Positions 1 through 58,207 of a stretch of DNA of 64,000 nt are shown piece by piece (within the stretch, counting starts at the first letter, position 1; every line of letters starts with the position of its first letter). Location: contig URHR01000001.1 of the NCBI GenBank assembly GCA_900547725.1, positions 19,894 to 83,893 on the forward strand, read 5' to 3'. The translations under genes were made by a program, and so were the position numbers. The notes under the pieces are model-generated. The model saw only the letters and a list, made by a program, of their open reading frames with translations. It ran no database searches and was not told the DNA's origin. Origin of the DNA: an uncultured Eubacteriales bacterium (GTDB taxonomy: Bacteria > Bacillota > Clostridia > Oscillospirales > CAG-272).

Positions 1-1373
1 TCATGCCACGGATGCTTGGAGACGGAAAGCGCGCCGTCCTTGACTTCATACGCCCATTTGTCCTTGCACTTGTCGGTCGGGGTGATCGTTTGCGTAATGC
101 CCGCTTCGGCAGGGGTTGTCACACTTTCGAAATCCTGACTCCAGACAGTGGTCAGCTTGGTCGGCAGGCGCGGGGTGTCGTCCCCGCCCTCTTCGTAAGT
201 GCCCTTTTCGATCGCGTCGAGCATTCCGCCCAACAGCTCGGCGTATTCTCTGTGTTCCGCCTCGGTGGGATGGTTGCCGCCCGCCGCCTGATCCGCGATG
301 TACACATAGTATTTCTCCGCCGCACCGCCAAGCTCATGCGTTACGCGCTTGATGATGTCGTTGTACTCGGTTTTCATCATACCGCCAACCAGAACGATGC
401 GGCAGTCCGCGCCGTTCTTCTCGCGCACCACGGCAACGAACGCCTTCAGCTTTGCCTCAAAGTCTGCGGCGGAAAGATTCTGAAACGCATCGTTTGTTCC
501 GACATTGAGAATCGAATAGTCCGCCTTCCGCGCAAAGCCGTACTCGGTTTTCATCGAGCGGTTGGGGCTTGCGTACTTGTAGCCCGCGAAAATGCCCGGA
601 TTTCCGACCGTCAGGCCCTGTCCCGAAAGCGCCATGACCGAAAGATCTGCGCCCATCGCCTCGGCGATCAGATAGGGGTATGCCATCGTTGCGTCCTGAT
701 CGCTGTAAGCGCCCTTGTGGTCGCCGATCACGCCCCAACCGCAGCAGATGCTGTCGCCGACGAATTCCAGAAGCAGGTTCTTCGCCGCAGGCGCGGTCTC
801 GGCAACCGTTCCGTCAAAGGACACGCTCTTGAGCATCGTGTTCGCCAGCGTGTAGCCCGTGACCTTGACCAAGCGGACGGTATGCGTGCCTTCGGGCAGA
901 TTCTTCAGGGTGATGGTCGCGTCACCCTTTTTCACTTCGTAGTAAGCGCTCTCGCCGTTGATGTATGCCGCGCCGTCCACATATGCGCGGAAGAAGCAGC
1001 CTTCCTTTCCCGCGCCCATATTGGTGGTGACCGAGAGGGCAAAGGTAATATCGCCCTTTCCGGTTGCAACAAACTCAATGCCCGACGCGCTCCAGTCGCA
1101 GGGAATGCCGTCCGCCATTGCTTCCATACGGGGGTCAAGCTTCTTCACCCACGCGCTGCTCCCGTTCAGTGCAAAGACGGTTCTGTCATCGGGCGTTTCG
1201 GGGTTATCCGGCGTGTTCGACGACCCGGGCGTTTTGGTTGTTCCGTCCGCCTTCTGCGCCTCGGTTGTGGAGCGCGCGGAAGTGCCCGGGTTTTTGGAGG
1301 GGTCGTTCGTTGCGCAGGATGCGAAAGGCACTGCCATGGCAAGCGCCAGTAAAATAGCCGCTACTCGTTTCAT
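1..1373 (-). CDS. Lipoprotein, CE2-like SGNH/GDSL carbohydrate esterase with an extra C-terminal lectin-like domain (3' end runs off the left edge)
   Basis: Absent from the ORF track because there is no stop in the window. My own minus-strand translation from the ATG at 1373 gives MKRVAAILLALAMAVPFASC (lipobox). Later motifs are LLEFVGDSICCGWG (GDS block), ILNVGTNDA and AAGGNHP (His block), and the sequence ends KWAYEVKDGALSVSKHPWH at the edge. RBS AAGGAGAG lies upstream. Confidence 0.75.
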   Translation of the reverse strand, partial: MKRVAAILLALAMAVPFASCATNDPSKNPGTSARSTTEAQKADGTTKTPGSSNTPDNPETPDDRTVFALNGSSAWVKKLDPRMEAMADGIPCDWSASGIEFVATGKGDITFALSVTTNMGAGKEGCFFRAYVDGAAYINGESAYYEVKKGDATITLKNLPEGTHTVRLVKVTGYTLANTMLKSVSFDGTVAETAPAAKNLLLEFVGDSICCGWGVIGDHKGAYSDQDATMAYPYLIAEAMGADLSVMALSGQGLTVGNPGIFAGYKYASPNRSMKTEYGFARKADYSILNVGTNDAFQNLSAADFEAKLKAFVAVVREKNGADCRIVLVGGMMKTEYNDIIKRVTHELGGAAEKYYVYIADQAAGGNHPTEAEHREYAELLGGMLDAIEKGTYEEGGDDTPRLPTKLTTVWSQDFESVTTPAEAGITQTITPTDKCKDKWAYEVKDGALSVSKHPWH

Positions 1374-1394
1374 AGAACTCTCCTTATCGGTTTA

Positions 1395-2573
1395 TCAGTT
1401 TTTGATGGTGAGAAGTCTCAGGTTGTCGATGGTCATTGCGGTGTTCTGCGCCCAAAGAACGATTGCGCTGTTCCCGGTCACATTGAAGGCCTTATCAAAG
1501 GTATAAGAGGAACAATATACTCCGTTGGCAAAGACAGTCGTCCGGCATCCTTCTTCGGTGCTCTCTACAAGGATAGAAAGACGGAAGGTTGCCTTTGCTG
1601 CATCCACATTCAGGAACTCTTTGCGGATGGATTTCTCGGTCTGCTTCGGCTCAAAGTCAATATAGTTCGTCACAACCGGCTTGGTAATCGCACCGCTTCC
1701 CCAACCGTTTCCGAGGTTCTGCCGCAAAGCAATTGCCAGAGCGCCGGCCTGATTGTTGTCACGATCGGTTGCGGAAAGCGCATTATCCCCGTTGAGAAGC
1801 AGGCAAAATACCGCCAATTCGTTGATGGTCAGATCCATTTCCAGAAGATAGGTTTTCGCCGCCTTCAACGTATTGGCATCCGCCAGAGTGAGATAGTAAT
1901 CCGCATTCTCATGCCAACCGTGCTTCGGAACTGACAACTTGCCGTCAACCACTTTGACATCCCAACCGCCGCATTTCGATGTCGCGGCAATCGTTTTTGT
2001 AATTCCCGCTTCATCCGGCGTTGCCGCGCTGTCAAAATTCTGACTCAAAGCCACTTCGGCAAACACGCCGTTCCGGTCAACCGCCATTGTCACAGGCGAG
2101 GAGACAACCGTCTCTCCGTCCTTGACGTAGACGGTAACCGAGAAGGTGACCGTCAGGTTGGACGGAACGCCCTTGATAATCGCCGCAAAAATACCCTTGG
2201 CATTCGCGTCGCCCGCAAGTTCCGCCGCAGTCACGCTCTTGGTCACGCCGTTCACCGTCTCCTTTACAGACGAATAGACCGTCGAGCCCTCCAACCCGTC
2301 TGCCGCGTTGTAAAGAACGCTCTTCTGCTCGCCGTCCGATACAAAGTTCGCGCGGATTTCCATACCGAGCGCCGTGCCGCGCAGGTCGGAAACAGTGGCA
2401 AGGAAACGCACGTCGTGCAGGGTTTCATCGGTTGCGTTGACCGCCGTTTGCACCGAACAAAGCGTCGGCGCTGTCAGGGTCACGGTATCGGTCGGTGCTT
2501 CCTCTGCGTGCGCCGTAACGGCAAACGACAGGAGCATTGCAAGGATCAACAAAATGGGTAGAATTCGTTTCAT
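1395..2573 (-). CDS. Secreted protein with a C-terminal concanavalin/LamG-like domain
   Basis: The ORF 1395..2822 is trimmed to the internal ATG at 2573, which has a GGAGG RBS and a signal peptide (MKRILPILLILAMLLSFAVTAHAEE). Its C-terminal block CGGWDVKVVDGKLSVPKHGWH matches the end of the neighbouring esterase. Confidence 0.7.
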   Translation of the reverse strand: MKRILPILLILAMLLSFAVTAHAEEAPTDTVTLTAPTLCSVQTAVNATDETLHDVRFLATVSDLRGTALGMEIRANFVSDGEQKSVLYNAADGLEGSTVYSSVKETVNGVTKSVTAAELAGDANAKGIFAAIIKGVPSNLTVTFSVTVYVKDGETVVSSPVTMAVDRNGVFAEVALSQNFDSAATPDEAGITKTIAATSKCGGWDVKVVDGKLSVPKHGWHENADYYLTLADANTLKAAKTYLLEMDLTINELAVFCLLLNGDNALSATDRDNNQAGALAIALRQNLGNGWGSGAITKPVVTNYIDFEPKQTEKSIRKEFLNVDAAKATFRLSILVESTEEGCRTTVFANGVYCSSYTFDKAFNVTGNSAIVLWAQNTAMTIDNLRLLTIKN

Positions 2574-2589
2574 CTTCTGATTCCTCCGT

Positions 2590-3510
2590 TTAAGAGTTGA
2601 TTTTGAACCGCAGAACCGTTGGGCAGTGGTCGCTGACCGACAGCAACCGCTCCTCGGCAACAATGCGGTATTCTTCCGCCCGAACGCGGGCGGTGGGATC
2701 GAAAAGGAACGCATGGTCAATTGCATAGGGGTAATGGAGCGCGGGCATTTCGTCTCTCTCCTGCTTCTCCCCTTTTCCCGAGGACGGGTGACAGGATGCG
2801 CGGTTGTCGCGCTCCGCCGCAAGGTCGTGCGTATCGCGAAACCCCAGTTCCGTCAGCCGTTTCGCGCCGCCTGCCGCAATGCCGGAATTGAAATCTCCGC
2901 AGAGCAGAACCGGGCAGGCATACGTTTCTGACAGGGCTGTCAGCTTTGCATGGATGAACTCCGCCTCTTCGGGCTGACACCACGTGCGCAGGCTGAGATG
3001 CGTGTTCGCAACCAACAGTCTGCCGCCATAGCCGCAGGGACTTCCGTTCAGCAGAACCCATGAGAGACTGCGAAACCGCGAACCGGGCTTTGCCGCCTCC
3101 GGGGCTTCCTCGGGGTATGCGTAGCGCGGGGATTCGTTGCAGGCATGGGCGGGATAGGTTTCGCGGCAGTCGTTTTTGGTGTCCACCACCGAAAAACCGT
3201 TTGCCGTGAAGTCCCACCTTCCCGCCGCTTCCTCCCGCCATCGGTCGGGGCGGTACAGAATCGGATTCCAACTCCCGCCCGGCAGCTCGCCGCTCCCCTT
3301 TGCCTCGGTATACGCTTTCCCGAGCGCGGGCAGAAACGCGGTGTCATGCCGATAGTAGTAGTCGAACTCCTGCAGGCAGATGAGATCGGGCGCGCGATCC
3401 GCGAGCCACGCGGCGGCGCGGAGTGCACGTTCCGCAGCGGTCCGATAGACCGCCGTTCCCGGCATCCACGCGTTGAGCAGATTCCAGGATACGCAAAGGG
3501 ATTCGGTCAT
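2590..3510 (-). CDS. Endonuclease/exonuclease/phosphatase (EEP) family protein, no signal peptide
   Basis: EEP motifs are present: SWNLLNAW, LICLQEFD, LCGDFNS, SDHCPTVLRF. The start is chosen at MTESL because its ATG overlaps the stop of the upstream micro-ORF (ATGA). Confidence 0.85.
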   Translation of the reverse strand: MTESLCVSWNLLNAWMPGTAVYRTAAERALRAAAWLADRAPDLICLQEFDYYYRHDTAFLPALGKAYTEAKGSGELPGGSWNPILYRPDRWREEAAGRWDFTANGFSVVDTKNDCRETYPAHACNESPRYAYPEEAPEAAKPGSRFRSLSWVLLNGSPCGYGGRLLVANTHLSLRTWCQPEEAEFIHAKLTALSETYACPVLLCGDFNSGIAAGGAKRLTELGFRDTHDLAAERDNRASCHPSSGKGEKQERDEMPALHYPYAIDHAFLFDPTARVRAEEYRIVAEERLLSVSDHCPTVLRFKINS

Positions 3511-3635: not shown

Positions 3636-3667
3636 AACTACCTCTCCTTTCTTATTTTTCGGGTTCA

Positions 3668-5419
3668 TCAGGTTTTGGTAAATGCAAGTACGGTCGGGCA
3701 ATGGTCGCTCGCGCTCAGAAGGTTCCCGTCGGTCAGAACCAGATACACCTGCGGACGGATTCCTCCGAGCGTGAGAATATGGTCAATGGCATCGCTCTCA
3801 TAGCGCCCGCCCGGCGCTTTTCCGAGCTCGTGCCAAGTTCCCGAATCGTTGCGGACTTTCGCGGTATCGTAGGTGTCCGCAAACCCCTTTGCGCGCAGTT
3901 GCTCCAGAACGCCTTCCGATTGCGTGCGGCGGGAGTTATAATCCCCGCAGAGCAGGGTCACACAGCCCTCGTAGCGCGCGGCAACGCCCCGCATGGTATC
4001 CGAGACCACCGTTGCCTCCGCAGGATGCGTTCCGAGCGGCAGACTGGCATGGAAATTGCCGACCAGATACAGGCTTCCGTCCGAGCGGTCGCGCAGAACC
4101 GCCCAGATCAGCTTGCGGAAGCGGGAAACGCCGTCCGCCGCGCCCGGGTAGGTGGTAGATTCCACCGCGCCTGCGGCTTCCACCAGATCCAGCCATCCCG
4201 ATTCCGCCACCGTGTAACGGTCCTTGCGATAGAGAATCGGATTCCAGATGTTGTTCTGCTCTACGCCGTCCACCGTAACCTCGGCGTAAAGCGCCTTCGT
4301 CTGATCCAGAAGCCCGCGGGGCGCTTTGCGGTAGCTGACGTCGAATTCCTGCAGGCAGATGAAGTCCGGCAGGTAGGAAAGCAGCATCGCCGCCACAGTA
4401 TCGTCGCGCGTTCCGGGCGTTGCGTTGTTCTGCCAGACATTCAACACGTTCAGCGTGATGATAATCCGGTCGCCGCTCCTCTCGGAGACCGTGACAAGAC
4501 CGTCCATCTCCAGTTTTTCGCCGCCCGTGACGTTGGCAAACCGATTTTCGAGATAGAGCCGCAGAAGCGTTTCGGACAGCCCGTCGCCGTATTCCAGACG
4601 GTATTCCGTCCCGCTCCGCGCAATCCGGTAACCGTTCAGTCCCTCGGTCTTGCGGATGACAATGCGGTTCTGCGCCCCGTCGGCAGTGCCGTCGGGTTTC
4701 GCCCGCATCAACATCTCTCCCGAGGTGCTCCGCACGGTTTCAATCAGCTGTGCGGCAAGGTTCGCTTCGGTCTCGGTGCAGTCTACCTGATAGTCCGAGA
4801 CAGGCGCGCCGCCAACGGTCAGCGAACCGATCTGGTAGCTTGCATCATGCGACAGCTTCAGCGCGCTCCGCTTCAGGCAGAGGTTTCCGTCCCGCATCAC
4901 GAGCGCGTCGGTCATCTGCCCGGAGGCAATCCACAGCGCGGAATAGGTATAGGCGGCAAGCGTGATACAGCCCGCGTCGCCCGTTACCCTGAAATCGTTG
5001 TAGCGAAGCCCGCGGAACGAATCCCCCGCATAGCCCGCGACGTTTCCGACCGCAATGACCCCGCCGATGTCGTCGGGAATTCTGCGGTCGCTCCAGACCT
5101 GAAATTCCACGCCGCTCTTCTCTTCCCAATCCGCCGCGAGCGTGCGCGCAATCTTTGCGTAGTCCGCAGAGGAAACGCCGTCGGGCAGATTGGTTTGCTG
5201 ATAAACGAAGGCATAGAGCGCCTTGCCGTCGGCGGTCAGTTCCAGCCGGTCGGCGGAATCGTCCGCAGACGCCGGGGCGGTTTCCGTGTTGCCCGGGGCT
5301 TTGGTCAAAGCTTCCGTCCCGCGCGGCTTCGTTCCGGTCGGCGTACCCGATCCGCCCGGGTTACATCCGACCAGAAGAAACGCAAAAACCAGCAAAAACA
5401 GAAATGTTCTTTTCATCAT
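3668..5419 (-). CDS. Lipoprotein with an N-terminal alpha/beta module and a C-terminal EEP-fold hydrolase domain
   Basis: Lipobox MMKRTFLFLLVFAFLLVGC. EEP motifs are TLNVLNVW, FICLQEFD, LCGDYNS, SDHCPTVLAF. Confidence 0.85.
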   Translation of the reverse strand: MMKRTFLFLLVFAFLLVGCNPGGSGTPTGTKPRGTEALTKAPGNTETAPASADDSADRLELTADGKALYAFVYQQTNLPDGVSSADYAKIARTLAADWEEKSGVEFQVWSDRRIPDDIGGVIAVGNVAGYAGDSFRGLRYNDFRVTGDAGCITLAAYTYSALWIASGQMTDALVMRDGNLCLKRSALKLSHDASYQIGSLTVGGAPVSDYQVDCTETEANLAAQLIETVRSTSGEMLMRAKPDGTADGAQNRIVIRKTEGLNGYRIARSGTEYRLEYGDGLSETLLRLYLENRFANVTGGEKLEMDGLVTVSERSGDRIIITLNVLNVWQNNATPGTRDDTVAAMLLSYLPDFICLQEFDVSYRKAPRGLLDQTKALYAEVTVDGVEQNNIWNPILYRKDRYTVAESGWLDLVEAAGAVESTTYPGAADGVSRFRKLIWAVLRDRSDGSLYLVGNFHASLPLGTHPAEATVVSDTMRGVAARYEGCVTLLCGDYNSRRTQSEGVLEQLRAKGFADTYDTAKVRNDSGTWHELGKAPGGRYESDAIDHILTLGGIRPQVYLVLTDGNLLSASDHCPTVLAFTKT

Positions 5420-5440: not shown

Positions 5441-6931
5441 TTAATAACCGAAGCGCGAGTTGATGTTGTCAATCACTCTCTGCATATTCTCAGCTTTTCC
5501 GTTCAGCGCCGAGTACCAGTCGTCGGACGTGTTGTTGTAAAGCCGCTTGCGGAAGAGCGCGACGGGAGAATCCTCCCAGTCGAATTCGTTGGCAAAAATC
5601 CGCCCCATGTCATAGGTCTTGGAAGAGACGATCAGGTCGAACATCTTTGCGTTGATCGGGTCGTCCTGTCCGCGATACTTCAGAAGATCGTAAACCTTCG
5701 GCTGAACCGTGCGGTAGCCGCCCGAGGCAAGCGCCTCCATGACATACGCCGCGCGCTCGGTATTCTCGCAGTAGGTCGTCATCGACCACATGGTGTACGG
5801 GAAGCCCGAGGTGGAGTAGTACTCCTTCTGTTCGGTGTCCGCCTTCGGGAACGGAAGATAGCCGTAGCGGTCGTTCATCTTCTCGCGGTTCTTCATCAGA
5901 ACCAGAAAACTCGTCCCCGCCAGAACCGCACGCCCTTCGGTGAAGATATCAAAGCTGTAGGAGGTCGGATAGTAGTAATCGTCGCTCTTGAAGCAGGCGA
6001 TCAGGTCGCGCGAAAGATCGTAGATCGCACTTCCGCGGAATTCGGGCGCGATAATCAGCTTGCCTTCGTCATCGGTAGAGAGATACTTCAGACCGTTCGA
6101 CGCCAGAAACGCGTCGCCCACAACGGAATCCATTCCGATGTAACCGAAGGTATCGCCCGGATCTTTGCCCGAGACCTCGCTGTTCGTGTCCAGATAGGCG
6201 TTCCGAGAGATCTTATAGAACTCCTCCATGGTCCACAGCCCCTCCTGCGCCAGTTCGCGCGGGTCGGTCAGCGTGTCGTCCGCGTCGATCTTCGCCATAT
6301 TGACGCTCATGACAAAGGTCTGCAGAATGCCCGCCGCAGAGATGGAACCCGAGGCAAAATAAAGCTTATCGTTGATGGTCGCGCCCTTCAGAAGCGACGC
6401 CGACCACCAAGGCTTGGAGAAATCGAGAATGTTCCCGTATTCGTTCAGGTCGCGCAGGAAGCCGTCCGCCGAGAAGTTCGCCGCGCACTGGCTGTAGCAG
6501 GCGATCAGATCCACGGTCGTTCCCGACCGCAGTGCGTTCTCCACATTGGTAACATACTCGGTTCTGTCCGCGTTTCCGCCGTTGTAGTTCAGGTTGAACT
6601 CCAGAACCACCTTCAGGCGCTCCTGAACCAGCTCGTTGCGCGAAAAGGTCTGCTCGGCAATCTCGTCCCCCTTCGCGTAGTCCGTGTTGAAATCGTAGGA
6701 AGCTTCGCTGTTGCTCCACCCCATTACGCGCACGGTCTCGTTTCCGTAGTTCAGCCCTGCGGGAATCGAATCCCGGATGTACCCGTTTTCGTCATACGGA
6801 TTTTCGGTTGTCCCGGCGTCGGTTGTCGGTCCGTCGGTTTTTCCCGGATTCGGCGGTGCGGTCTTGCTGCCACACCCGAACAGGATTGCGGCAACCAGAA
6901 TCAGACAAAGAAGCAATGCAATTTTTTTCAT
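5441..6931 (-). CDS. Large lipoprotein solute-binding protein (ABC family-1 / LplA-like)
   Basis: ATG at 6931 with a GGGAGG RBS; the track start at 6937 is TTG. Lipobox MKKIALLLCLILVAAILFGC. Blocks FSRNELVQERL, YSQCAANF and FSKPWW are shared with the SBPs at 33974, 41910 and 54117. Confidence 0.85.
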   Translation of the reverse strand: MKKIALLLCLILVAAILFGCGSKTAPPNPGKTDGPTTDAGTTENPYDENGYIRDSIPAGLNYGNETVRVMGWSNSEASYDFNTDYAKGDEIAEQTFSRNELVQERLKVVLEFNLNYNGGNADRTEYVTNVENALRSGTTVDLIACYSQCAANFSADGFLRDLNEYGNILDFSKPWWSASLLKGATINDKLYFASGSISAAGILQTFVMSVNMAKIDADDTLTDPRELAQEGLWTMEEFYKISRNAYLDTNSEVSGKDPGDTFGYIGMDSVVGDAFLASNGLKYLSTDDEGKLIIAPEFRGSAIYDLSRDLIACFKSDDYYYPTSYSFDIFTEGRAVLAGTSFLVLMKNREKMNDRYGYLPFPKADTEQKEYYSTSGFPYTMWSMTTYCENTERAAYVMEALASGGYRTVQPKVYDLLKYRGQDDPINAKMFDLIVSSKTYDMGRIFANEFDWEDSPVALFRKRLYNNTSDDWYSALNGKAENMQRVIDNINSRFGY

Positions 6932-35506: not shown

Positions 35507-35549
35507 TTCCAATTAACTCCTCTCTTTCTTCCGATTTATCGGTACTTAT

Positions 35550-49471: not shown

Positions 49472-51943
49472 TCAGTCTTTCCGACGTTTCTTCACCAATC
49501 CCCCGGCAAGTGCACCGGACAGCAGGATTGCCATGATCGCCCAGCCGGCGTCAGCGCTCGACTGACAGCCGCGCGACTCCTTCCCGGACGTGCCGGAAGT
49601 CGGCTCCTCAGTCTTTCCGCCGGTCGGTGCTTCCGTGGTCGGCTTCTCAGAGGTCGGTTTCTCCGAGGTCGGAGGCTCCGGGGTCGGAGGCTGTGGCTGC
49701 TCCGGCTCATCCTTTGCAACGGCGTCTGCGGAGACATTCTGCACCAACGCATTTGCCTCACCCGGCCAGATCAGCCCGCTCTCGGCGTAATCGTCCGGCG
49801 TTTCGGCAATCACCGCCACGGAGGAGATTGCCAGGTTGGTGCCTCTTCCAACCATGAAGCCGAAGAAGGAATTGCTGGTGGAAATGGTGTTGCTACCCTT
49901 AATCCAAACGACCGTCTGACCTTCACAGGTTGCAATGATGCGGTAGGTTTCCCGCTCCATTGCGGAGTAAGTGAATGTAACCTCTTTTCCGGCTCTGACC
50001 GCTTCCCAGAATGCTTTTACGGTTTCTTCTTCCATGGTGGTCGTGCAGTTGTCCAACTCACCATTGTAACGGAAACAGGTGTTTGTTTCTCCACTGGTCT
50101 TTCCGTCCTCACCGATGGTGTTGGACTGAACGAAAACAAAGTAGGAGGGGGAGGGCTCCACGAAGCGGAACCGGATCTGCACGGTAAAGTTCTGAATGTT
50201 CTTCGGAATACCGTTCCCGGTCAGCATAACCTTTACACCGTCGCCGGAGTTGGTTTTCACACGCAGCTCGCCGTCCTTGATCATAAAGGCGTCCGGCTCG
50301 GCATCGTTGGTTACGAAATAACCGGTCTTCGAAAAATCTGTCACCTTGGCAAAGTCCATGTAATGCAGGACATACCCCGCCTTGTATTTGGTATCGGCGG
50401 TGTCGCTGTAAGCCAGCTCCGGCTCGGCGGGCTGCTTGCGGTTCGGGGTCAGGATGTTTTCCAGGGGCTCTTCCGGCTTCGGCGGATCGATCTCACCGCG
50501 GACGCCGGAGATACGCATGGACCGCAGGACCGCCGCGCTGGAGCTGCCGCCGTCACAGCGGAAGGACAGCGTCATGCTCTTCGGATCCACCGTCAGTCCC
50601 TTTGCCGCATTCGTGTAGGTAACGGTTTTGTCGCCAAAGGTTACGCTGAAGGTGTTCATCTTCCCGTTTTTGACGTAGAACCGATAGGTCAGAAATTCGC
50701 CGTCCGCGATGGCGGCATTCAGCGCCTTGGCGTTCGTCTTGTTCGCATCGTCATCGGTTGCGGCAAAATCCGCCCAGGAATACAGGTCATCCGATTTGAA
50801 AACCAGCACGCTGTAGTTTTCTCCCTCCACCCGTTTGGTGAAGCACCACTGATCCGTGTGTGCGTCCGGGTCAAACCCGAAGCCGTAAACCAGATAGTTA
50901 TTCTTCTTATTCCCCTGCGCAATTGCCATGGTATACTCGTAGACATACTCGCTGTAGCCGGTCATATCGTTCAGAGCAACATACGCACTGACATGATCGC
51001 TCCAGGAGCCGACTGCCAAGCCTTTGTCGGTCAGTGCCTGATAGTTTTTGCCGCGATAGGTGTTCTGCAGGCGTTCGATAACCTCGATTCCAAGCGCCTC
51101 TGCCAGGTCAGCTGCCGGCGTTTCGGCGGTCAGCTGTTTTTCTGTCCAGATGGATTTGTAATCCTTTTCGACCAAAGCCGCTGTCGCATCCTTTTCGGTT
51201 ACGGTCAGCTTTTCCAGCGTCACCGCCAGCACCTGATCGCCGTCGGCACGGCAGGCAAGCGTGAACTTTCCCTTTTGGGCGCTGATCTGCGATGCCGGAT
51301 CGGTGTTTGCGTAGGTCACGGTAACATCTCCGCAGGAGACGATCACCTTTGCCAGCTTACCGCCCTCAACGACAAAGCGGTAGGATGCAACCTTCTTTTC
51401 GTTGCGGATTGCGGTTTTCAGTGCCTTCGCGTTGTCGGCATTGTCGAATGCGTAGCCGGCATTGAAAACCATCTGATCGCCGCTGAAACGGAAGTTGGTG
51501 CCGTCATTGACGATCTCCCACGCGCCGTCCCCGTTTTTGTCATTTGCAAAGCCGAAAAAGAGGTAGCAGTTGTCTCCGGAAGCATCGAACTTCATGGCTG
51601 CTTCCACCGTGTAATCGGTTTTCTCCGCCAGGGATGTTCCAAGGCTCACGCCGTGTGCGCGGAAGTTGACCGAGGAGAAGGTCAGTCCGTCCGCCGTCAG
51701 AACGGCTTTTGCCTTCTGATACTTCACCGAGGTTTTGTCCGCAACACCGATGCCGAGATTCTCCAGCCCGTTTGCATCGGTCGGCTGTGTCAGGTTCAGA
51801 TCCTGATATTTCTTTGCGAAATCAATGTTTGCAACTTCGACCGGTTCGCCGCTCGTTTCCGTTCCGTCCGCCAGAACCGGCAGGGACAGGAAGCAGGACG
51901 ACAACAGCAGGACAGCGATAAGGACAGATACAATGCGTTTCAT
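49472..51943 (-). CDS. 823-aa secreted multi-module lectin-like protein with a Pro/Thr linker and a C-terminal TM anchor
   Basis: Signal peptide MKRIVSVLIAVLLLSSCFLSLPVLADG. Internally repeated modules of about 190 aa. Linker PQPPTPEPPTSEKPTSEKPTTEAPT. The tail is AGWAIMAILLSGALAGGLVKKRRKD with no LPXTG. Confidence 0.8.
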   Translation of the reverse strand: MKRIVSVLIAVLLLSSCFLSLPVLADGTETSGEPVEVANIDFAKKYQDLNLTQPTDANGLENLGIGVADKTSVKYQKAKAVLTADGLTFSSVNFRAHGVSLGTSLAEKTDYTVEAAMKFDASGDNCYLFFGFANDKNGDGAWEIVNDGTNFRFSGDQMVFNAGYAFDNADNAKALKTAIRNEKKVASYRFVVEGGKLAKVIVSCGDVTVTYANTDPASQISAQKGKFTLACRADGDQVLAVTLEKLTVTEKDATAALVEKDYKSIWTEKQLTAETPAADLAEALGIEVIERLQNTYRGKNYQALTDKGLAVGSWSDHVSAYVALNDMTGYSEYVYEYTMAIAQGNKKNNYLVYGFGFDPDAHTDQWCFTKRVEGENYSVLVFKSDDLYSWADFAATDDDANKTNAKALNAAIADGEFLTYRFYVKNGKMNTFSVTFGDKTVTYTNAAKGLTVDPKSMTLSFRCDGGSSSAAVLRSMRISGVRGEIDPPKPEEPLENILTPNRKQPAEPELAYSDTADTKYKAGYVLHYMDFAKVTDFSKTGYFVTNDAEPDAFMIKDGELRVKTNSGDGVKVMLTGNGIPKNIQNFTVQIRFRFVEPSPSYFVFVQSNTIGEDGKTSGETNTCFRYNGELDNCTTTMEEETVKAFWEAVRAGKEVTFTYSAMERETYRIIATCEGQTVVWIKGSNTISTSNSFFGFMVGRGTNLAISSVAVIAETPDDYAESGLIWPGEANALVQNVSADAVAKDEPEQPQPPTPEPPTSEKPTSEKPTTEAPTGGKTEEPTSGTSGKESRGCQSSADAGWAIMAILLSGALAGGLVKKRRKD

Positions 51944-52019: not shown

Positions 52020-54104
52020 CTAAGAGAATTGTCTGACGTAATCCGGCGCGGAGCCGACCTTGTGCGGCAGAGGCAGAATCATGACCGATTCGTCCTCCAT
52101 CAGCAGGTTTTCCCGGACGCTCTTCACGTCGAAATGGTTCCTGGGGCTGTTCCAAAGCCCCTCCTTCATCACAGTCGCATACGGACTGGTCCACAGTGCC
52201 GTATCCGCCGCAATTTTCAGATACATCTGCGTATTCCCGCCGTTGTAGCCGTGGTGTGCCACCTGAACAATATCGCTTTTCAGGGTGTTTCCGTACATCC
52301 GGTAGACAATGGTGGATGCATCGTCATGCGCATCGTTCAGAAAGACAATCCGCTGTCCGCCCAGCGTAACGGTGTAGATCAGGGACGAGGAGTTGGTCAC
52401 CTTCATCACTGCGGGAGACAGGTCCTCGTGCGTGTAGAGCATATCCACCATTGCATCGCCGAACCACATCAGCTGTCCTGCGTGCGGGATGATCAGCGAA
52501 GCGTTGCTGTAGGTGACCGCGATTGCCTGCTTGGCACGCGTAATCATTTCGGTCATATCCGGCGTCACGTTCGCCGCCTCCACATTTTTGCTGTAGGTCT
52601 CATAGGACGGAATGTTCAGCACAACCGACTCCATCGTCACCTTCTCGCCGTAGTGCTCGGCAAACCCGATGAAGCCGCCGTAGTGATCCACGTGTGCGTG
52701 TGAAAGAATCCATGCGGCAATTACCGGCTTTCCTCCACGCACATTCTGCGCCACCAGCTGTTCGTAGATCGACTTCCAGTTTTTCTCATAGTTGAGTCCC
52801 CCGTCGATGACCAGAAAACGTCCGTCCGACAGCCGGAGGATAAACGCACAGGCGCCGTTGATCTGCGTCAGCTGCGGCGTGGTCACCTTGTCCGTGGAAT
52901 CCGGACTTTGCCTGCCCAGCGTCACGTTTGCCGCAGTCTCCGAAGCAATGCGTGTGATCTGATAGAACTTCGCATAGTTGACGCTGAGCAGGTTGTAGCC
53001 GTCGGTATAGGTGGCAAACAGATTGCCGTTTACCTCCCGCCGGGCATAGCAGGTAAAACCAAGGGTCTCCAGCTTTTCAAGGTACGCGCGGTATTCCTCC
53101 GCCGTTGTGTTGTGATACTGGACATAGTAGGAATTCAGATCCGACCGATTCATCAAATCGTAGCCGGTCTCCCGGTATTGCGGAATGGTTCCGAAGCCCT
53201 CCGCCGCCCGCGTTCCGGTCAGCGCCGGGAAGATAGAGAAGGCGTCTCCCTTTCCACTGGAAATCATATTGCACAGCTCCTTTGTAACATCCGGAAGATA
53301 GCCCGTCAGAGCCACCGAGCCGGAAACGCGGTCAACCTGCAGGGTACGGTCCATAAACAGAGAACGGTTTTCCCGGGAAAGAGACCGGTTGGTGTCCCCG
53401 ACCAGAATCTCCCGCCCGGCACGCGGCTCCAGATCCGTCACCACGGCGGGAGCAAAGCCGAACCGCTCCGAGATGGCATTCCGGATATCCTCCGCGGCGT
53501 TTTTCGCCTCGGCACTGTCGGCCGCGTAGACAATCCGAAGGTCGCGGTTCTGCGGGGAAAAGATCTCCACGGACGGGTAGCTCTCACTGGTATAGGTATA
53601 TTCGTGCGGCAGCGTCAGCCCGCCGTCCTGCGATTCGCAGACCGTCAGCAGCTGCTTTACGGCAAGCGGATACAGGGCATCATCTGCGGCAACAATCACC
53701 GCCTGACCGTCCGCAATCCGTATGGAAAATCCGTGCTCCGGCACTCCCTGCCCGACCTGCGCCGAGGCTTCAAACGAGGTCTCCCCCATGAGGATCATCG
53801 GACTGCCGTCCTGCCGGACCAGCGAATCGGCGCCTGCCTTCAGGGACACGCCGCAAAGGACACGGATCCGCGTCTGCAGTTCCGTCACCGCATTCCCAAG
53901 GCACGCACTTGCCCGGAGCGGATAGACCAGCCGTCCGACCGATTCCCCGTCCCGAATCAACGTCATGCGTGCATTCTGCTCTGCGGTTGTCTCCGTTGTT
54001 CCGGTGTCAGGCTGCTTTGGTTTGCCGGTGCAGGACGCGGTCGCCGACAGACACAGCAGCATCGCCCCCGCCGCAGCGCATAGCCTGAGTGTTCGCAGCT
54101 TCAT
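52020..54104 (-). CDS. Lipoprotein with two N-terminal alpha/beta modules and a metallo-beta-lactamase-fold (ComEC-like) hydrolase domain
   Basis: Lipobox LLCLSATASC. N-module motif REILVGDTNRSLS. MBL motifs LSHAHVDHYGG and QVAHHGYNGG. RBS GGGGAGG. Confidence 0.85.
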   Translation of the reverse strand: MKLRTLRLCAAAGAMLLCLSATASCTGKPKQPDTGTTETTAEQNARMTLIRDGESVGRLVYPLRASACLGNAVTELQTRIRVLCGVSLKAGADSLVRQDGSPMILMGETSFEASAQVGQGVPEHGFSIRIADGQAVIVAADDALYPLAVKQLLTVCESQDGGLTLPHEYTYTSESYPSVEIFSPQNRDLRIVYAADSAEAKNAAEDIRNAISERFGFAPAVVTDLEPRAGREILVGDTNRSLSRENRSLFMDRTLQVDRVSGSVALTGYLPDVTKELCNMISSGKGDAFSIFPALTGTRAAEGFGTIPQYRETGYDLMNRSDLNSYYVQYHNTTAEEYRAYLEKLETLGFTCYARREVNGNLFATYTDGYNLLSVNYAKFYQITRIASETAANVTLGRQSPDSTDKVTTPQLTQINGACAFILRLSDGRFLVIDGGLNYEKNWKSIYEQLVAQNVRGGKPVIAAWILSHAHVDHYGGFIGFAEHYGEKVTMESVVLNIPSYETYSKNVEAANVTPDMTEMITRAKQAIAVTYSNASLIIPHAGQLMWFGDAMVDMLYTHEDLSPAVMKVTNSSSLIYTVTLGGQRIVFLNDAHDDASTIVYRMYGNTLKSDIVQVAHHGYNGGNTQMYLKIAADTALWTSPYATVMKEGLWNSPRNHFDVKSVRENLLMEDESVMILPLPHKVGSAPDYVRQFS

Positions 54105-54116
54105 ATGTGCCTCCCC

Positions 54117-55640
54117 TCAGGGTGTTGTCTCCGCCGCGGGGCGGAACGCCTTAAGAACTCCGGAAAGATTGTTGTTGATCAGCGGCAGACTGATGTTCAC
54201 GCCGGTGACCGCGTTCTTGTTGTCGGAGATTCTTCTCTGAATGACCGAAGCCGTTCCGAGACGGAAAATATTGTCCAGCTCCAGGCGGGTAATGCCGAGA
54301 TCGGTCAGCCCCAGCACAACATCCAGCATCTGCGAGGCAATCGGATCCTTGGCAATTCTGCCCTGCAGAATCACGTTGTAGTACTCCGGTTTTACAACCT
54401 GGTAGGAGATTGCACAAAGCCACTCCATCACCGTGCAGACCCGCCGGAGTCTGTCCTCACTGCCCAGGTTACGGGGAACGCCGCAAAGTGCGCCCGCCTC
54501 ATAAACATAACTGACGTACTGCGCCTGATTGGAATCATACTTCGGCAGCGGAACGATTCCGTAAGGAACCGCCTTGCCCGCCACATAAAGCCGCATATCT
54601 CCGATGGTACCGCCCAGGAAGGTTGCACGTCCCTCCTCGAACACCCACTGGGTATCCTTGGTGGCAAACTTTCCGGAGGTGTAGCTCTCGGAATCGTACG
54701 AGGTACGGATATAGTTCTCGCGGTCATTCCCGTTGTCGGAGAAGAAATCGCGCATGATGGTGCCGTAAACATCGGTAAAACGCGTGTCCAGCTCACTCAG
54801 CACCAACCCCTCCTTCTCATCCTGCCGGCAGATGCGGATATCCGCCGCGCTGAGCATTGCCGAAGCAAACGCAATGTGCGATGCAACACCGTAATGGTTC
54901 GGCGTTGCTCCCTCCACGTGTGTCTGGCTTGCAATCTCATGCATCCGCTCAAAGGTCCAGGTATTGTTCCGCACATCGGTGTACGGCGATTCGATTCCGT
55001 ACGCGGCCAGGACATCGGTGTTAAAAGCAAGGCACCAGATGGATTCGTACCACATCAGCTGCATATCCCCGACCACATAGAACAGGTTGTCGTATACCGA
55101 CAGCTCCTCCATCGCCGCACTGTACCACCACGGCTTGTTGAAGTTGAGGTAAGAGGCATAGTCATTGACCGATTTATAAACGCCGCGCTGTGCCAGAATC
55201 GCCTGCGCCCAGGATTCGTTGTAACAGATGTCGTATTCGTTTTTTCCGCCAAGGTCTGAGATCACCAGCCGTTCCATCAGCTCCTTGTTTTCGGCATACG
55301 GCAGCTCCTTGACCTTCAGGTTAATATCCAGCTCCTGCTTGACATACTCGTTTCTGGAAAAGATCGCACTGCTGACCGCACTGGACAGGTCGTCCGGAAC
55401 CATTGTTGTAATCGCATAGTCACTGATGTTGTTGAGAATGACAAAATCCTGGTTTTCGAAATCTCCCTGCGGCAGATCCGCGTACAGCTCGTTATCCGTC
55501 CCGTCCGTTGTTCCGGGAGGCGTTGTTCCGGAATCCGATCCCGGTGTCTTCCGTCCCGTGCATCCGACCAACAGCAGCCCTGCGGTCAGAAGGACCGCCA
55601 AAACACTTCTTGCTATCTGTTTCACTTTGGTTTCCTCCAT
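54117..55640 (-). CDS. Large lipoprotein solute-binding protein (LplA-like)
   Basis: Trimmed from 55769. Lipobox LLTAGLLLVGC. Blocks FSRNEYVKQEL and FNKPWW. The start is either ATG 55640 or, more likely, GTG 55625, which is preceded by GGAGGA. Confidence 0.85.
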   Translation of the reverse strand: MEETKVKQIARSVLAVLLTAGLLLVGCTGRKTPGSDSGTTPPGTTDGTDNELYADLPQGDFENQDFVILNNISDYAITTMVPDDLSSAVSSAIFSRNEYVKQELDINLKVKELPYAENKELMERLVISDLGGKNEYDICYNESWAQAILAQRGVYKSVNDYASYLNFNKPWWYSAAMEELSVYDNLFYVVGDMQLMWYESIWCLAFNTDVLAAYGIESPYTDVRNNTWTFERMHEIASQTHVEGATPNHYGVASHIAFASAMLSAADIRICRQDEKEGLVLSELDTRFTDVYGTIMRDFFSDNGNDRENYIRTSYDSESYTSGKFATKDTQWVFEEGRATFLGGTIGDMRLYVAGKAVPYGIVPLPKYDSNQAQYVSYVYEAGALCGVPRNLGSEDRLRRVCTVMEWLCAISYQVVKPEYYNVILQGRIAKDPIASQMLDVVLGLTDLGITRLELDNIFRLGTASVIQRRISDNKNAVTGVNISLPLINNNLSGVLKAFRPAAETTP

Positions 55641-55860: not shown

Positions 55861-57153
55861 TTACGCCTGATGCGTGGATTTACGGATTTCCTCCTCATAG
55901 GTATGCAGATCCACCACGCTTCCGTTCAGCCTGGATGCTTCCGCCGCAAAGGCGACCAGATGGTTTTCCACCGATGTTGCAATATCCGTAATGGAGTTTC
56001 CGTCATAGGTTCCCGCAAGAAGACTGCAGAAGCTGCGGATGATCCCGCGGTCGCCGCCGCCGTGACCGCCCCGGATGCTCTCATCCCGGACAGCCTCGGA
56101 GATGCTGATCTTCGTCTCCTGCCGCGTCGCGAAATCGAACAGCGTGACGAAATCATCCGACATCTGCGCGGAAATCTCCCCTTTTGTGCCCATGATGCGG
56201 ATTTTTCTGCCGCCGCGGTTGAAGGCACTCATGGTAAAAGAAACCGTGGCGCCGTCCTCGTACTCCAGATCCACCACCTGATGATCCACAACATCGTTGT
56301 CACAGCGGAATACGCACCTGCCGTAATCCGTCTCCGTGATGGCGCGTTCAATGTCGGAATCGGTCGGATGATGTTTTTTGGTCGCGGTTTTCACAAAGGC
56401 GGGAAAGGCGCGGTCACGGTAGATCTTCAGCGCGCTGTACGGGCAATCCTTTTCCACCGGGCATCCCTGCGCGCAGAACTCCGGCGCACCGGCAGGCATA
56501 TTCTCTCGCCGGAAATAGGAAAGCCCGCCAAAGCTCTGCAACCGCGTGCATCGCTCACCAAGCAGCCACTGCACAATGTCCAGATCGTGACAGCTCTTTG
56601 CCAAAATCATCGGTGTGCTGTCCTCCGAGCGGTGCCAGTTCCCGCGCACATAGCTGTGGCTCTGGTGGACATTTCCGACGCACTCCACGTGAACGATGTT
56701 GATGATCCGCCCCACGCGCCCGTCCTCCACCAGCCGCTTCAGCAACCGGAAGAACGGAGTAAAGCGGAGAACGTGGCAGACCACCACCCGCACGCCGCGC
56801 CGCCGGGCGGCATCCGCAACCTGCAGGCACTCCGCAGGCGTCGGTGCAACCGGCTTTTCCAGAAGCAACTGATACCCCAGCTCAATGGCGCGCATTGCGG
56901 GAGCAAAATGCAATCGGTCCTGCGTGGCAATGATTGCGGCATCTGCAAATTTCGGGCGGTCAAGGATCTCCTCCCAGCACGCAAAGCAGGCATCCGCCGG
57001 CAGTGCAAACATTCGCCGGATGTAATCCCTGCGCTCCGGATCCGGATCGGCAACCCCGACCAGTTCGAATTCCGGACAATTCTGTGCGCCGAGTTCCGCG
57101 TAGGTTGTCCCCCGATCTCCGGCACCGATCAAGATTATTTTGATTTTTTTCAT
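55861..57153 (-). CDS. Gfo/Idh/MocA-family NAD(P)-dependent oxidoreductase
   Basis: N-terminal Rossmann motif MKKIKIILIGAGDRGTTY. Also ATQDRLHFAPAMRAIELGYQLLLEKP. RBS CAGGAG. Confidence 0.9.
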   Translation of the reverse strand: MKKIKIILIGAGDRGTTYAELGAQNCPEFELVGVADPDPERRDYIRRMFALPADACFACWEEILDRPKFADAAIIATQDRLHFAPAMRAIELGYQLLLEKPVAPTPAECLQVADAARRRGVRVVVCHVLRFTPFFRLLKRLVEDGRVGRIINIVHVECVGNVHQSHSYVRGNWHRSEDSTPMILAKSCHDLDIVQWLLGERCTRLQSFGGLSYFRRENMPAGAPEFCAQGCPVEKDCPYSALKIYRDRAFPAFVKTATKKHHPTDSDIERAITETDYGRCVFRCDNDVVDHQVVDLEYEDGATVSFTMSAFNRGGRKIRIMGTKGEISAQMSDDFVTLFDFATRQETKISISEAVRDESIRGGHGGGDRGIIRSFCSLLAGTYDGNSITDIATSVENHLVAFAAEASRLNGSVVDLHTYEEEIRKSTHQA

Positions 57154-57260
57154 GATAAACTCCTGTTTTCGTTTCGTATGACCCTTTTTTATTGTACCAT
57201 ATGCACAGGCAAAAGTAAATGCTGTTTTTGCTCACAAATCTTCTTTTTTCGGTCCTCTTC

Positions 57261-57289
57261 TTGACAAAATCCGTGCCATGCGGTATAAT
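57261..57289 (+). promoter_or_regulatory. Consensus sigma-A promoter of the AraC gene
   Basis: TTGACA (57261-57266), a 17-nt spacer, then TATAAT (57284-57289). Confidence 0.65.
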
Positions 57290-57370
57290 AAAGTCAGGCG
57301 CGGATCCGATTTGCGGTCAAAGTCCGCCGGATACCGCACGCCCACAGAATACAGCCAGGAGGACACGGCA

Positions 57371-58207
57371 ATGTACAAAACCCATTATGTCGCTAACAAT
57401 ACCGACATTTTCATGAGCGAGCATCACGGCAGGAGCGCACCGCACGTTGTGGAAATCGGTCACTCCACGCCGCCCCACGGCTACGAATCCAAGCCCCTGC
57501 GCCGGAACGTCTGGGTCCTGCACTATGTTGTCAGCGGCTGCGGCGTTTACTTCAGGCAGCCGGTCACGGGACCCTGCGTTTTCATCGAAACACCGGATAC
57601 CGTGCACTACTACACCATATCCGGCGACCCTGCAGCGCCCGCATGGGAGCAGTACTGGATCATGTTTGACGGAGCCACCGTCCCGGATTGGCTCGCCTAC
57701 GCCGGCTTTCCGAAGGTTCCGACGGTTCTGCCCTGCACCTATATGCATCAGGCGCAGAACATTTTCGCCGAGCTGCTCACCAGTTCCAATTACATCGGGC
57801 TCAATGACCATTACTATATGCTGTCCGGGCTCTGCCGCCTGTTTGCGCTCCACGCGGCAATGAAGGAACACCCTCCACGCTCCGATTCCGCCTACGTCCG
57901 CAAGCTCCGCGCCTACATCCACGAAAATTACGCCACCATCCGGAACGAGGAAGAGCTTGCCGATCTGGTGCATCTTTCCACGCGCTACATGAACAAAATT
58001 TTCAAAAAAGAGACCGGTGAATCACCGATCCGGTATCTGAATCATTATCGCATCCGCTGTGCAAAAAATCTGCTGGAGCGTCCGGAGCTGTCGGTTCACG
58101 AAATTTCGGAAATGCTCGGTTTCTCCAATCCGAATTATTTCTGCTGTGTCTTCCAGCGGCACTGCAACGGCATCTCCCCTCTGGCTTACCGCAAGGGCGC
58201 GAGATGA
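57371..58207 (+). CDS. AraC/XylS-family transcriptional regulator
   Basis: Start at MYKTHYV with a GGAGGA RBS. HTH region PIRYLNHYRIRCAKNLLERPELSVHEISEMLGFSNPNYFCCVFQRHCNGISPLAY. Confidence 0.9.
   Translation: MYKTHYVANNTDIFMSEHHGRSAPHVVEIGHSTPPHGYESKPLRRNVWVLHYVVSGCGVYFRQPVTGPCVFIETPDTVHYYTISGDPAAPAWEQYWIMFDGATVPDWLAYAGFPKVPTVLPCTYMHQAQNIFAELLTSSNYIGLNDHYYMLSGLCRLFALHAAMKEHPPRSDSAYVRKLRAYIHENYATIRNEEELADLVHLSTRYMNKIFKKETGESPIRYLNHYRIRCAKNLLERPELSVHEISEMLGFSNPNYFCCVFQRHCNGISPLAYRKGAR

Follow-up and report, generated by a model that had tools for sequence, protein, structure and literature searches.

We report on a 64-kb stretch of DNA (hereinafter the window, meaning all 64,000 nucleotides analysed) from contig URHR01000001.1 of an uncultured Eubacteriales bacterium, which codes for four like-for-like gene cassettes (A–D), a distinct pair of a solute-binding protein (SBP) and a regulator, a block of giant surface proteins and mobile DNA. 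Each of the four cassettes features an SBP lipoprotein of about 500 amino acids (aa), hereinafter termed X (X-A at 5441, X-B at 33974, X-C at 41910 and X-D at 54117), which is its sole transport-related gene. These proteins belong to a large family whose members, in the window and in the related loci surveyed, never adjoin an ABC permease of their own type and recur alongside surface lipoproteins with EEP- and MBL-fold phosphodiesterase-like domains. We propose that cassettes A–D are probably Gram-positive polysaccharide-utilisation-type loci for phosphodiester- (and ester-) bearing glycans, and we rate the chances as about even that a shared CUT1-type ABC translocator encoded elsewhere receives different fragments from the many X paralogs. 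An earlier note, made by a model from the nucleotide letters of the window, had counted five cassettes; the number has to be reduced to four, as the fifth SBP belongs to another family and is paired with a LuxR gene.

All five SBP genes singled out in the earlier note (5441, 20881, 33974, 41910 and 54117) are present and begin with lipoprotein signal peptides (...LFGC, ...FFSC, ...LASC, ...FASC and ...LVGC). Only 20881–22236 displays an outright Pfam SBP match (SBP_bac_8, E=9e-22). X-D shows a marginal match to SBP_bac_1 (E=1e-3), and 5441, 33974 and 41910 recover no Pfam, NCBIfam or PDB sequence match. The four X proteins are mutually paralogous, with 19–25% identity (E=6e-5 to 3e-32):

5441..6931, minus strand: X-A, orphan CUT1-type SBP lipoprotein (lipobox, paralogy, family profile and fold; 21 nt upstream of the EEP lipoprotein gene)
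33974..35512, minus strand: X-B, orphan CUT1-type SBP lipoprotein (lipobox, paralogy, profile; the protein used for the structural model)
41910..43454, plus strand: X-C, orphan CUT1-type SBP lipoprotein (lipobox, paralogy; stop codon overlapping the GTG start of the MBL gene)
54117..55625, minus strand: X-D, orphan CUT1-type SBP lipoprotein (separated by 12 nt from the MBL gene downstream; L064 has it as a 502-aa gene)

A homolog search recovered about 120 relatives of X, all from uncultured Clostridia, Eubacteriales or Oscillospiraceae, a few of which show weak SBP_bac_1 or SBP_bac_8 matches. When compared to the PDB, a 26-sequence family profile detects Bacillus subtilis AraN (6rjy, E=3.6e-8) along with several MalE-type/maltose-type binding proteins, and among 26 family members Pfam finds SBP_bac_1 weakly in 11 (best E=4e-6) and SBP_bac_8 in 6. 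The earlier note had suggested modelling the SBP structures; an AlphaFold model of X-B (pLDDT 88.7) displays two lobes in a type II periplasmic-binding fold. Of its Foldseek matches in the PDB, the top 50 consist entirely of CUT1 sugar SBPs and fusion constructs of maltose-binding protein (best E of about 1e-13); they include GltA, TMBP, CbpB, GL-BP, UgpB and MalE, with target-normalised TM-scores of up to 0.68. Across the family the lipobox cysteine is invariant, and there are invariant aromatic and charged positions. The profile, the model with its Foldseek matches and the Pfam matches in relatives concur in predicting that the X proteins are divergent CUT1-type sugar SBPs.

A HMMER scan of 1.84 billion representative proteins yielded 7,072 X-family clusters (50% identity, E<=1e-30), indicating a very large family that is mostly missed by standard annotation; its members stem almost exclusively from uncultured Clostridia of the gut and rumen. 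A third homolog search, using profile A1, brought up largely the same proteins again, with no canonical relatives linked to permeases. In four loci (L023, L028, L029 and L038) we observe tandem arrays of two to four X paralogs with no enzymes in between; thus, the family grows by local duplication as well as within cassettes. A literature search found no description of the X family or of SBP-EEP/MBL cassettes. LplA-like SBPs, which are likewise about 500 aa long, combine SBP_bac_1 with a C-terminal DUF3502 domain and are partnered with LplB/LplC permeases. The X proteins had been labeled LplA-like in the earlier note: their number and size stand, but the label is unsupported because DUF3502 matches none of the X proteins in the window at E<=1 and none of the 26 family members at E<=0.01. 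Nor do LplB/LplC-type permeases lie beside X in the window, in 13 Pfam-annotated homolog contexts or in the 55 non-redundant loci described below.

We scanned every long open reading frame (ORF) of a six-frame list, on both strands of the window, against Pfam and NCBIfam, and subjected all 270 stop-to-stop ORFs of at least 80 aa to a hydropathy scan. Three of the latter have three or more transmembrane (TM)-like segments, all of them antisense to identified genes, and among the real ORFs of the 64 kb there is no polytopic membrane protein, ABC permease or ABC ATPase. The ABC signature motif occurs in no window ORF, and the only credible Walker A motif is that of an AAA_14/DUF4143 protein. Hence, the absence of ABC permeases and ATPases noted earlier is upheld by the hydropathy, ABC signature, Walker A and Pfam scans alike. 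Independent-assembly contigs with identical proteins extend the transporter-free stretch at least 8.6 kb past the left end of the window. Two candidate hidden permeases on the minus strand (7071–7955 and 8124–9086; 294 and 320 aa) were rejected, being antisense to AraC and GH31 genes and devoid of Pfam matches, and long antisense ORFs in the GC-rich parts (3701–5428+, 41934–43601-, 43622–45448-, 49433–52036+, 54105–55259+, 55726–57264+ and others) gave no matches either.

The wider contexts of X were drawn from exact-protein look-ups with precomputed Pfam annotation, a one-genome-per-species scan (34 loci) and a metagenome scan (21 loci), with the genome and metagenome scans using the narrow alignment A2. 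Removal of near-duplicates left 55 non-redundant loci with 76 X genes, amounting to 798 kb from about 50 genomes. No BPD_transp_1 or CUT1 permease adjoins X in any of these, BPD_transp_1 is absent from the 13 Pfam-annotated X-homolog contexts, and no ORF in the X loci matches a regular expression for the EAA loop. All multi-TM candidates of 200–480 aa that are not antisense to X or another identified gene were checked with Pfam, which rejected them as CUT1 permeases and placed every one checked in unrelated families (YitT, EamA, BPD_transp_2, BacA, Mem_trans, Glt_symporter, ABC-2 exporter, MMPL, MFS, MatE, DUF1538 and DUF308). The sole complete ABC importer near X, in L068, is a nucleoside-type system (Bmp/BPD_transp_2) equipped with an SBP of its own. 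Had related cassettes routinely carried adjacent permeases, as the earlier note had considered, the orphan state would reduce to simple local loss; that explanation is refuted because no orthologous or paralogous X locus has an adjacent CUT1 permease (0 in 55 loci with 76 X genes). Genes for other transporters do occur beside X: in two unrelated metagenome-assembled genomes (MAGs), an MFS_1 gene (L031 614–1954 and L034 8478–9785) stands divergent from an X homolog at a distance of about 200 nt, and in L006 an X homolog is directly preceded by an ECF_trnsprt gene. These could be chance occurrences or a hint of a non-ABC uptake partner.

The cassettes share a common logic, with X embedded among lipid-anchored or secreted proteins, cytoplasmic enzymes and AraC regulators. 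Cassette A (minus strand, 1–6931) runs in the order X-A, EEP lipoprotein, cytoplasmic EEP, secreted 392-aa protein and CE2/GDSL esterase lipoprotein, and beside it stand a divergent AraC gene and a cytoplasmic GH31 gene (7203–10685):

1..1373 (runs off the left end), minus strand: CE2/GDSL-type esterase lipoprotein (Lipase_GDSL_2 and CE2_N matches; lipobox ...PFASC)
1395..2573, minus strand: secreted 392-aa protein (signal peptide MKRILPILLILAMLLSFAVTAHA; no Pfam match)
2590..3510, minus strand: EEP-fold enzyme without signal peptide, cytoplasmic (Exo_endo_phos, E=2.7e-10 over the full profile)
3668..5419, minus strand: surface EEP lipoprotein with an N-terminal module and an EEP-fold domain (lipobox LLVGC; Exo_endo_phos at residues 326–573)
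7203..8108, plus strand: AraC-A, a cupin plus helix-turn-helix (HTH) one-component regulator divergent from X-A (AraC_binding, Cupin_2, HTH_18)
8214..10685, plus strand: GH31 glycosidase without signal peptide, cytoplasmic (Glyco_hydro_31_2nd, E=8e-56)

Past the left end, related contigs (L069–L071) show that the operon continues with the esterase (627 aa at full length), two GH2 genes and a 384-aa protein; the same contigs carry an identical gene call for the 392-aa protein. EEP 2590, the start of which gene callers place four codons later than in its 310-aa version, shares 33% identity with the catalytic half of the lipoprotein EEP beside it. The AraC-A regulator is a 301-aa gene in L041 and L069. 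Between EEP 3668 and EEP 2590 there is a small ORF (window 3507–3701, minus strand; 42–53 aa, MKKLYTTPMMASVELSAQDILTG..., not hydrophobic), called by gene finders at the same place in L041 and L069.

Cassette B (24519–36895, minus strand) comprises AraC, X-B, a GLUG protein, an EEP lipoprotein with a GH20b-like module, a cytoplasmic EEP, GH78 and a 505-aa protein:

24519..26036, minus strand: cytoplasmic 505-aa protein (no signal peptide; no significant Pfam or PDB match)
26085..28457, minus strand: GH78 alpha-L-rhamnosidase, cytoplasmic (four rhamnosidase domains, E=7.5e-55; no signal peptide)
28472..29683, minus strand: EEP-fold enzyme without signal peptide (Exo_endo_phos)
29701..31509, minus strand: surface lipoprotein with a GH20b-like module and an EEP-fold domain (lipobox LLFGC; Exo_endo_phos, Glyco_hydro_20b)
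31772..33499, minus strand: secreted GLUG-motif protein (Glug motif; signal peptide)
35912..36895, minus strand: AraC-B regulator (HTH_18, HTH_AraC; weak Cupin_2)

EEP 28472 shares 50% identity with the last 355 aa of the lipoprotein EEP encoded next to it; the latter shows weak PDB sequence matches to PDE12, 3g6s and the mannosyl-6-phosphatase BT3783 (4c1r). The 505-aa protein is retained in the same cassette in other strains (L007, L046). Across L007, L043, L045 and L046 the GLUG protein is 88–92% identical, as against 94–99% for the flanking X-B and EEP proteins; by these identities, evolution appears to be faster in the secreted GLUG protein than in the proteins on either side.

Cassette C (38456–45403) consists of a divergent AraC gene, a GLUG-like protein, X-C and an MBL lipoprotein, and cassette D (45581–58207) of a divergent AraC gene, a Gfo/Idh/MocA oxidoreductase, X-D, an MBL lipoprotein, a secreted 823-aa protein, an EEP lipoprotein, a GNAT acetyltransferase and a GDPD enzyme:

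38456..39394, minus strand: AraC-C regulator, divergent from cassette C (HTH_18, E=4.7e-21)
39587..41704, plus strand: secreted GLUG paralog (signal peptide; 26% identical to GLUG 31772 over 352 aa, E=5e-15)
43451..45403, plus strand: surface lipoprotein with an N-terminal module and an MBL-fold phosphodiesterase-like domain (lipobox; Lactamase_B)
45581..46417, minus strand: GDPD glycerophosphodiester phosphodiesterase without signal peptide (GDPD, DUF4996; a 278-aa gene in L064)
46462..47628, minus strand: GNAT acetyltransferase, cytoplasmic (Acetyltransf_9)
47740..49383, minus strand: surface EEP lipoprotein (lipobox LLAGC; Exo_endo_phos, E=2.6e-15)
49472..51943, minus strand: secreted 823-aa protein (signal peptide; no significant Pfam or NCBIfam match)
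52020..54104, minus strand: MBL lipoprotein with two GH20b-like modules, a beta-sandwich and a Pce/ComEC-like MBL domain (lipobox, HxHxDH, profile, model)
55861..57153, minus strand: Gfo/Idh/MocA sugar oxidoreductase, cytoplasmic (NCBIfam inositol and UDP-GlcNAc dehydrogenase families; GFO_IDH_MocA)
57371..58207, plus strand: AraC-D regulator, divergent from cassette D (AraC_binding, HTH_18; a 278-aa gene in L064)

MBL 43451, a paralog of MBL 52020, has an N-terminal module in common with EEP 47740 (36% identity). The 823-aa protein is conserved in L043 and L064–L066. Including one further gene at 37603–38376, the window holds five AraC genes (7203–8108, 35912–36895, 37603–38376, 38456–39394 and 57371–58207), and Pfam matches bear out the earlier count of five AraC regulators and one membrane LuxR regulator (22252–23877, with two TM segments).

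Several lines of evidence mark these genes as a recurring functional unit, as had been proposed in the earlier note. The order X–GLUG–EEP (lipoprotein)–EEP (cytoplasmic) is kept at an X identity of only 39–44% (L001, L003, L008, L010, L011 and L012), with syntenic orthologs of GLUG 31772 in L001, L003, L008 and L011, and X is divergent from an MBL lipoprotein gene in at least nine more genomes, within housekeeping neighborhoods. In L003, a single 1,348-aa protein fuses a half resembling GLUG 31772 to a half resembling EEP 29701, which constitutes Rosetta-stone evidence for these proteins working together. Spacing within the cassettes is tight (gaps of 12–21 nt), and the GTGA overlap described at 43451 is indeed present, with the X-C stop and the MBL GTG start sharing 4 nt (43451–43454). 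The co-occurrence of X with EEP, MBL and GLUG proteins was examined by all-against-all clustering of the 55 non-redundant loci, which places this group in 19 of them and AraC in 14. The earlier note also described the SBPs as co-oriented with surface or secreted proteins, as is seen in the four X cassettes; the fifth SBP is coupled to LuxR and lies beside repeat-rich surface proteins.

The surface enzymes of the unit point to phosphodiesterase chemistry. Five genes of the EEP superfamily score above the Pfam cut-off, three of them spanning positions 1–225 or 3–225 of the 225-position profile and two ending near position 203. Among 25 MBL lipoprotein sequences, H469, D473 and H474 are invariant and H471 is conserved in at least 90%, thus delineating an HxHxDH binuclear metal site. 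Their profile detects the MBL domain of ComEC (E=1e-6) and pneumococcal Pce/CbpE (E=1.3e-5). Consistently, a model of MBL 52020 (pLDDT 89.6) finds Pce (2bib/1wra, E=1e-13) as its best Foldseek match, followed by the ComEC domain (9ic4, E=3e-11). Lower-ranked Foldseek matches are to GH20 enzymes and one GH115 enzyme; we tentatively attribute these matches to the N-terminal domains, the output giving no query coordinates by which to confirm it. One MBL homolog has a GH67N Pfam match. The Pfam scan of the MBL proteins found Lactamase_B only, with no choline-binding repeats, and there are no TM segments beyond the signal peptide. A related observation comes from L001 (8067–9659), where the regulator by the cassette-B homolog (43% X identity) is a 530-aa fusion of an AraC HTH to a HAD hydrolase domain, an architecture that suggests a phosphorylated effector.

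Three unrelated phosphodiesterase folds, namely EEP, MBL and GDPD, thus co-occur in this system. From these domain assignments we infer that the substrates of the cassettes would carry phosphodiester or phosphate groups, with teichoic-acid-like polymers or phosphoglycans as candidates. Such polymers are perhaps rhamnose-containing, given the GH78 and GH106 neighbors.

Accepting this substrate class, the cassettes would operate as follows. Outside the cell, a membrane-anchored lipoprotein with an EEP-fold or Pce/ComEC-like MBL-fold phosphodiesterase domain, preceded by GH20b-like accessory modules and often helped by the secreted GLUG protein, would cut the polymer. The cassette's own X lipoprotein would bind the released fragment and hand it to a CUT1-type ABC translocator encoded elsewhere and common to many X paralogs. 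Within the cell, the EEP paralog, GH31, GH78, GH2, GDPD, GNAT and the Gfo/Idh/MocA oxidoreductase might complete the breakdown, and the cytoplasmic cupin-type AraC regulator is predicted to sense a product and switch on the cassette. The GH31, GH78, EEP 2590, EEP 28472, 505-aa, GNAT, GDPD and oxidoreductase proteins all lack a signal peptide; the products must enter the cell because the cassettes encode such enzymes together with soluble cupin-type AraC regulators. The earlier note had left a choice between an SBP acting as a surface capture or sensing partner and one sharing a distant transporter; since the products must enter the cell, the evidence leans toward the shared distant transporter. 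There is precedence for such an arrangement: MppA is an orphan SBP that uses the Opp translocator encoded elsewhere (PMC3173086), dozens of orphan Bug proteins can serve very few translocators (PMC11452294), bifidobacterial LT-SBP orphans are encoded away from translocator genes (PMC8110962), and the CUT1 ATPase MsmK is shared between transporters (PMC3302838). Further orphan-SBP precedents (Thomas 2010; Chen 2010) are listed among the references of PMC12838199.

Several points weigh against delivery to a shared translocator or against the proposed substrates. No candidate hub BPD_transp_1 translocator was found in the window, in the 8.6 kb to its left or in the 798 kb around 76 X genes. If the transporter's own SBP were among the X paralogs, at least one X–permease adjacency would be predicted, and none was found. 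Cytoplasmic enzymes show that import occurs, not that it occurs via X. The permease screen in loci without Pfam annotation consisted of hydropathy and an EAA-motif regular expression, for which the data hold no positive control. Finally, the substrate class is read from fold similarity only, and GH31, GH78, GH2 and CE2 would fit plant or host glycans equally well. The main competing explanation is that X has left ABC transport altogether and become a surface capture and hand-over subunit for the EEP/MBL enzymes and GLUG proteins, analogous to SusD or surface glycan-binding proteins, with uptake via an unrelated carrier. The family being orphan throughout (76 genes without an adjacent permease), the translational coupling or close spacing of X with surface lipoprotein enzymes, the N-terminal module common to the EEP and MBL enzymes as a possible docking site, the location of X–MBL pairs in conserved housekeeping neighborhoods and the MFS genes divergently adjacent to X in L031 and L034 are all compatible with it. 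However, X retains a full two-lobed SBP fold, modelled with high confidence, as well as invariant aromatic and charged positions, and SBPs with translocators encoded elsewhere are a documented and simpler explanation; accordingly, we consider a departure from ABC transport doubtful. A more specific form of it, in which X would be the capture subunit of a lipid-anchored surface machine (EEP/MBL enzymes with GH20b modules plus GLUG proteins) that dismantles the phosphodiester-linked wall polymers of other microbes without feeding an ABC transporter, strikes us as unlikely. We are just as skeptical that such an X-family machine, with teichoic acids and phosphoglycans as its targets, would be the Gram-positive counterpart of the Sus-type utilisome.

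Another alternative casts the X proteins as extracellular sensors, with ligand-loaded X signaling through a membrane partner to activate the cassette. The pairing of SBP 20881 with a membrane LuxR in the same window lends it some plausibility, and sensor kinases activated by an SBP and encoded beside its gene are known (PMC11113362). Yet X is accompanied by soluble AraC regulators of the cupin type, which have neither a TM segment nor a receiver domain, and no X cassette or annotated homolog context includes a histidine kinase or membrane sensor, leaving this alternative highly improbable. The orphan state could also be trivial, resulting from permease loss in this strain or from a mis-assembled or chimeric metagenomic contig: GC content along the window ranges from 0.37 to 0.63 and mobile elements lie at its right end. 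The difference in GC between cassette blocks that had been noted earlier is real at the level of single genes (0.435–0.456 in cassette B as compared to 0.537–0.635 in cassettes A, C and D). However, the junctions between GC blocks are reproduced by independent assemblies (L042/L070, L043), and the GC mosaic is therefore not an assembly chimera. Such assemblies also confirm the gene order with proteins 96–100% identical, cassettes B and D are neighbors in another strain (L043), and orthologs and distant paralogs are equally orphan in dozens of genomes. We hence accord a trivial origin next to no probability, and delivery by X to a shared, distantly encoded CUT1 translocator remains our preferred reading.

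The records closest to the window are contigs from human-gut metagenomes and a MAG labelled 'uncultured Clostridia bacterium'. In L043, cassettes B and D are only about 4 kb apart, indicating that cassette C and its AraC genes are strain-variable. At the boundary of low-GC cassette B and high-GC cassette C is a 130-aa fragment of a C-5 cytosine DNA methylase (window 37154–37546, minus strand; Pfam profile positions 117–173 of 324; 37% GC). It contains a perfect TTGACA-17-TATAAT match (37191–37163) and is probably a remnant that marks the edge of an insertion. Rfam, tRNA and promoter/terminator scans gave nothing informative on the cassettes. The mobile DNA (58847–63885) codes for a serine recombinase (CcrB/XisF-like), the AAA_14/DUF4143 ATPase and a split IS5-type transposase (DUF4096 plus DDE_Tnp_1), and different recombinases or transposases occupy the same site beside AraC-D in L064 and L065.

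The fifth SBP, which had been grouped with the other four, is a different kind of gene: it is a canonical SBP_bac_8 lipoprotein, has no significant similarity to X and is coupled to a membrane LuxR regulator, ending 15 nt before its gene:

20881..22236, plus strand: canonical SBP_bac_8 lipoprotein outside the X family (SBP_bac_8, E=9e-22; no significant similarity to any X)
22252..23877, plus strand: membrane-bound one-component regulator of the LuxR type (two TM segments flanking an outside domain of about 300 aa, then a coiled coil and a GerE HTH)

The LuxR protein has TM segments at residues 12–46 and 346–384 and GerE at residues 477–531. On the strength of gene adjacency and this topology, SBP 20881 is probably an extracellular co-sensor, i.e., a ligand-binding partner of the two-TM regulator. 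As in known cases of SBP-dependent transcriptional sensing, the SBP adjoins a regulator with an extracytoplasmic domain of about 300 aa between two TM helices; in contrast to them, a one-component LuxR/GerE membrane regulator takes the place of the histidine kinase. Next to it (10957–20627, minus strand) are three very large repeat-rich surface proteins of 753, 1324 and about 1050 aa, at least one of them a lipoprotein, with YDG, MBG, Flg_new/InlB B-repeat and Big_3 domains; domain scans detected no hydrolase domain in them. In L041, sugar-catabolic genes (FBP aldolase, lyxose isomerase and PfkB kinase) stand in place of this block, together with genes for another MBL protein and AraC regulator; the block is strain-variable.

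If our proposal is correct, abundant uncultured gut Clostridia possess a very large unannotated branch of sugar-binding lipoproteins that is mostly missed by Pfam and NCBIfam. Transporter-less polysaccharide-utilisation loci (PULs) would be a regular genome design in these organisms, such that adjacency-based predictors of PULs and transporters under-call their glycan use. The pairing with three unrelated phosphodiesterase folds would point to an unstudied gut niche, namely phosphodiester-linked glycopolymers such as teichoic acids. More generally, the X cassettes offer a test case for the reach of ABC translocator sharing as opposed to the recruitment of SBP folds as stand-alone Gram-positive surface capture proteins.

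Orphan SBPs and PUL-like loci are already known as kinds. In MppA/OppBCDF, the Cbc transporter with its multiple SBPs, the Bordetella Bug proteins and the bifidobacterial LT-SBPs, as here, the SBP gene stands apart from those of the membrane components, and like X, known orphan SBPs come as several paralogs per genome with presumably different ligands. They differ in that the whole X family, with its thousands of clusters, appears orphan, with no 'home' transporter seen beside any member, and in that X proteins are CUT1 sugar-type Gram-positive lipoproteins physically linked to surface phosphodiesterase lipoproteins. In Gram-positive PULs (gpPULs) of gut Firmicutes, genes for a regulator, an SBP lipoprotein, extracellular enzymes and intracellular glycosidases form one co-oriented cluster, and transporter genes belong to the definition. 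The present loci share with them the concentration of AraC regulators, GH31, GH78, two GH2 genes, a CE2-like esterase and a GH20b-like module in one locus. Unlike gpPULs, they possess only the SBP and no transporter genes, and their extracellular enzymes are EEP- and MBL-fold phosphodiesterase-like lipoproteins instead of classical endo-glycanases. SusD and the surface glycan-binding lipoproteins of Bacteroidota PULs likewise place a lipid-anchored binding protein beside surface enzymes, in many substrate-specific cassettes per genome under the control of a regulator; SusD is, however, a TPR-like helical protein, whereas X has a type II periplasmic-binding fold, and there is neither an outer membrane nor a SusC partner here.

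By structure and by profile, the MBL lipoproteins match best to Streptococcus pneumoniae Pce/CbpE and the MBL nuclease domain of ComEC, with which they have the HxHxDH site in common. Identity to these is only 16–19%, and the MBL lipoproteins differ in being lipid-anchored, in having two GH20b-like modules and a beta-sandwich N-terminal to the MBL domain and in lacking choline-binding repeats. BT3783 (PDB 4c1r, deposited as a mannosyl-6-phosphatase), which we take to be an enzyme of the yeast-mannan PUL of Bacteroides thetaiotaomicron, is an EEP-fold enzyme of glycan catabolism with a weak sequence match to EEP 29701 (E=0.007); by comparison, the EEP proteins described here have additional N-terminal modules and come in pairs of a surface and a cytoplasmic enzyme. 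Set against these systems, what is new is how widely and consistently a Gram-positive CUT1 lineage is orphan, and its conserved link to lipoprotein phosphodiesterases of two folds with common accessory modules, together with the hint of a phosphoglycan niche.

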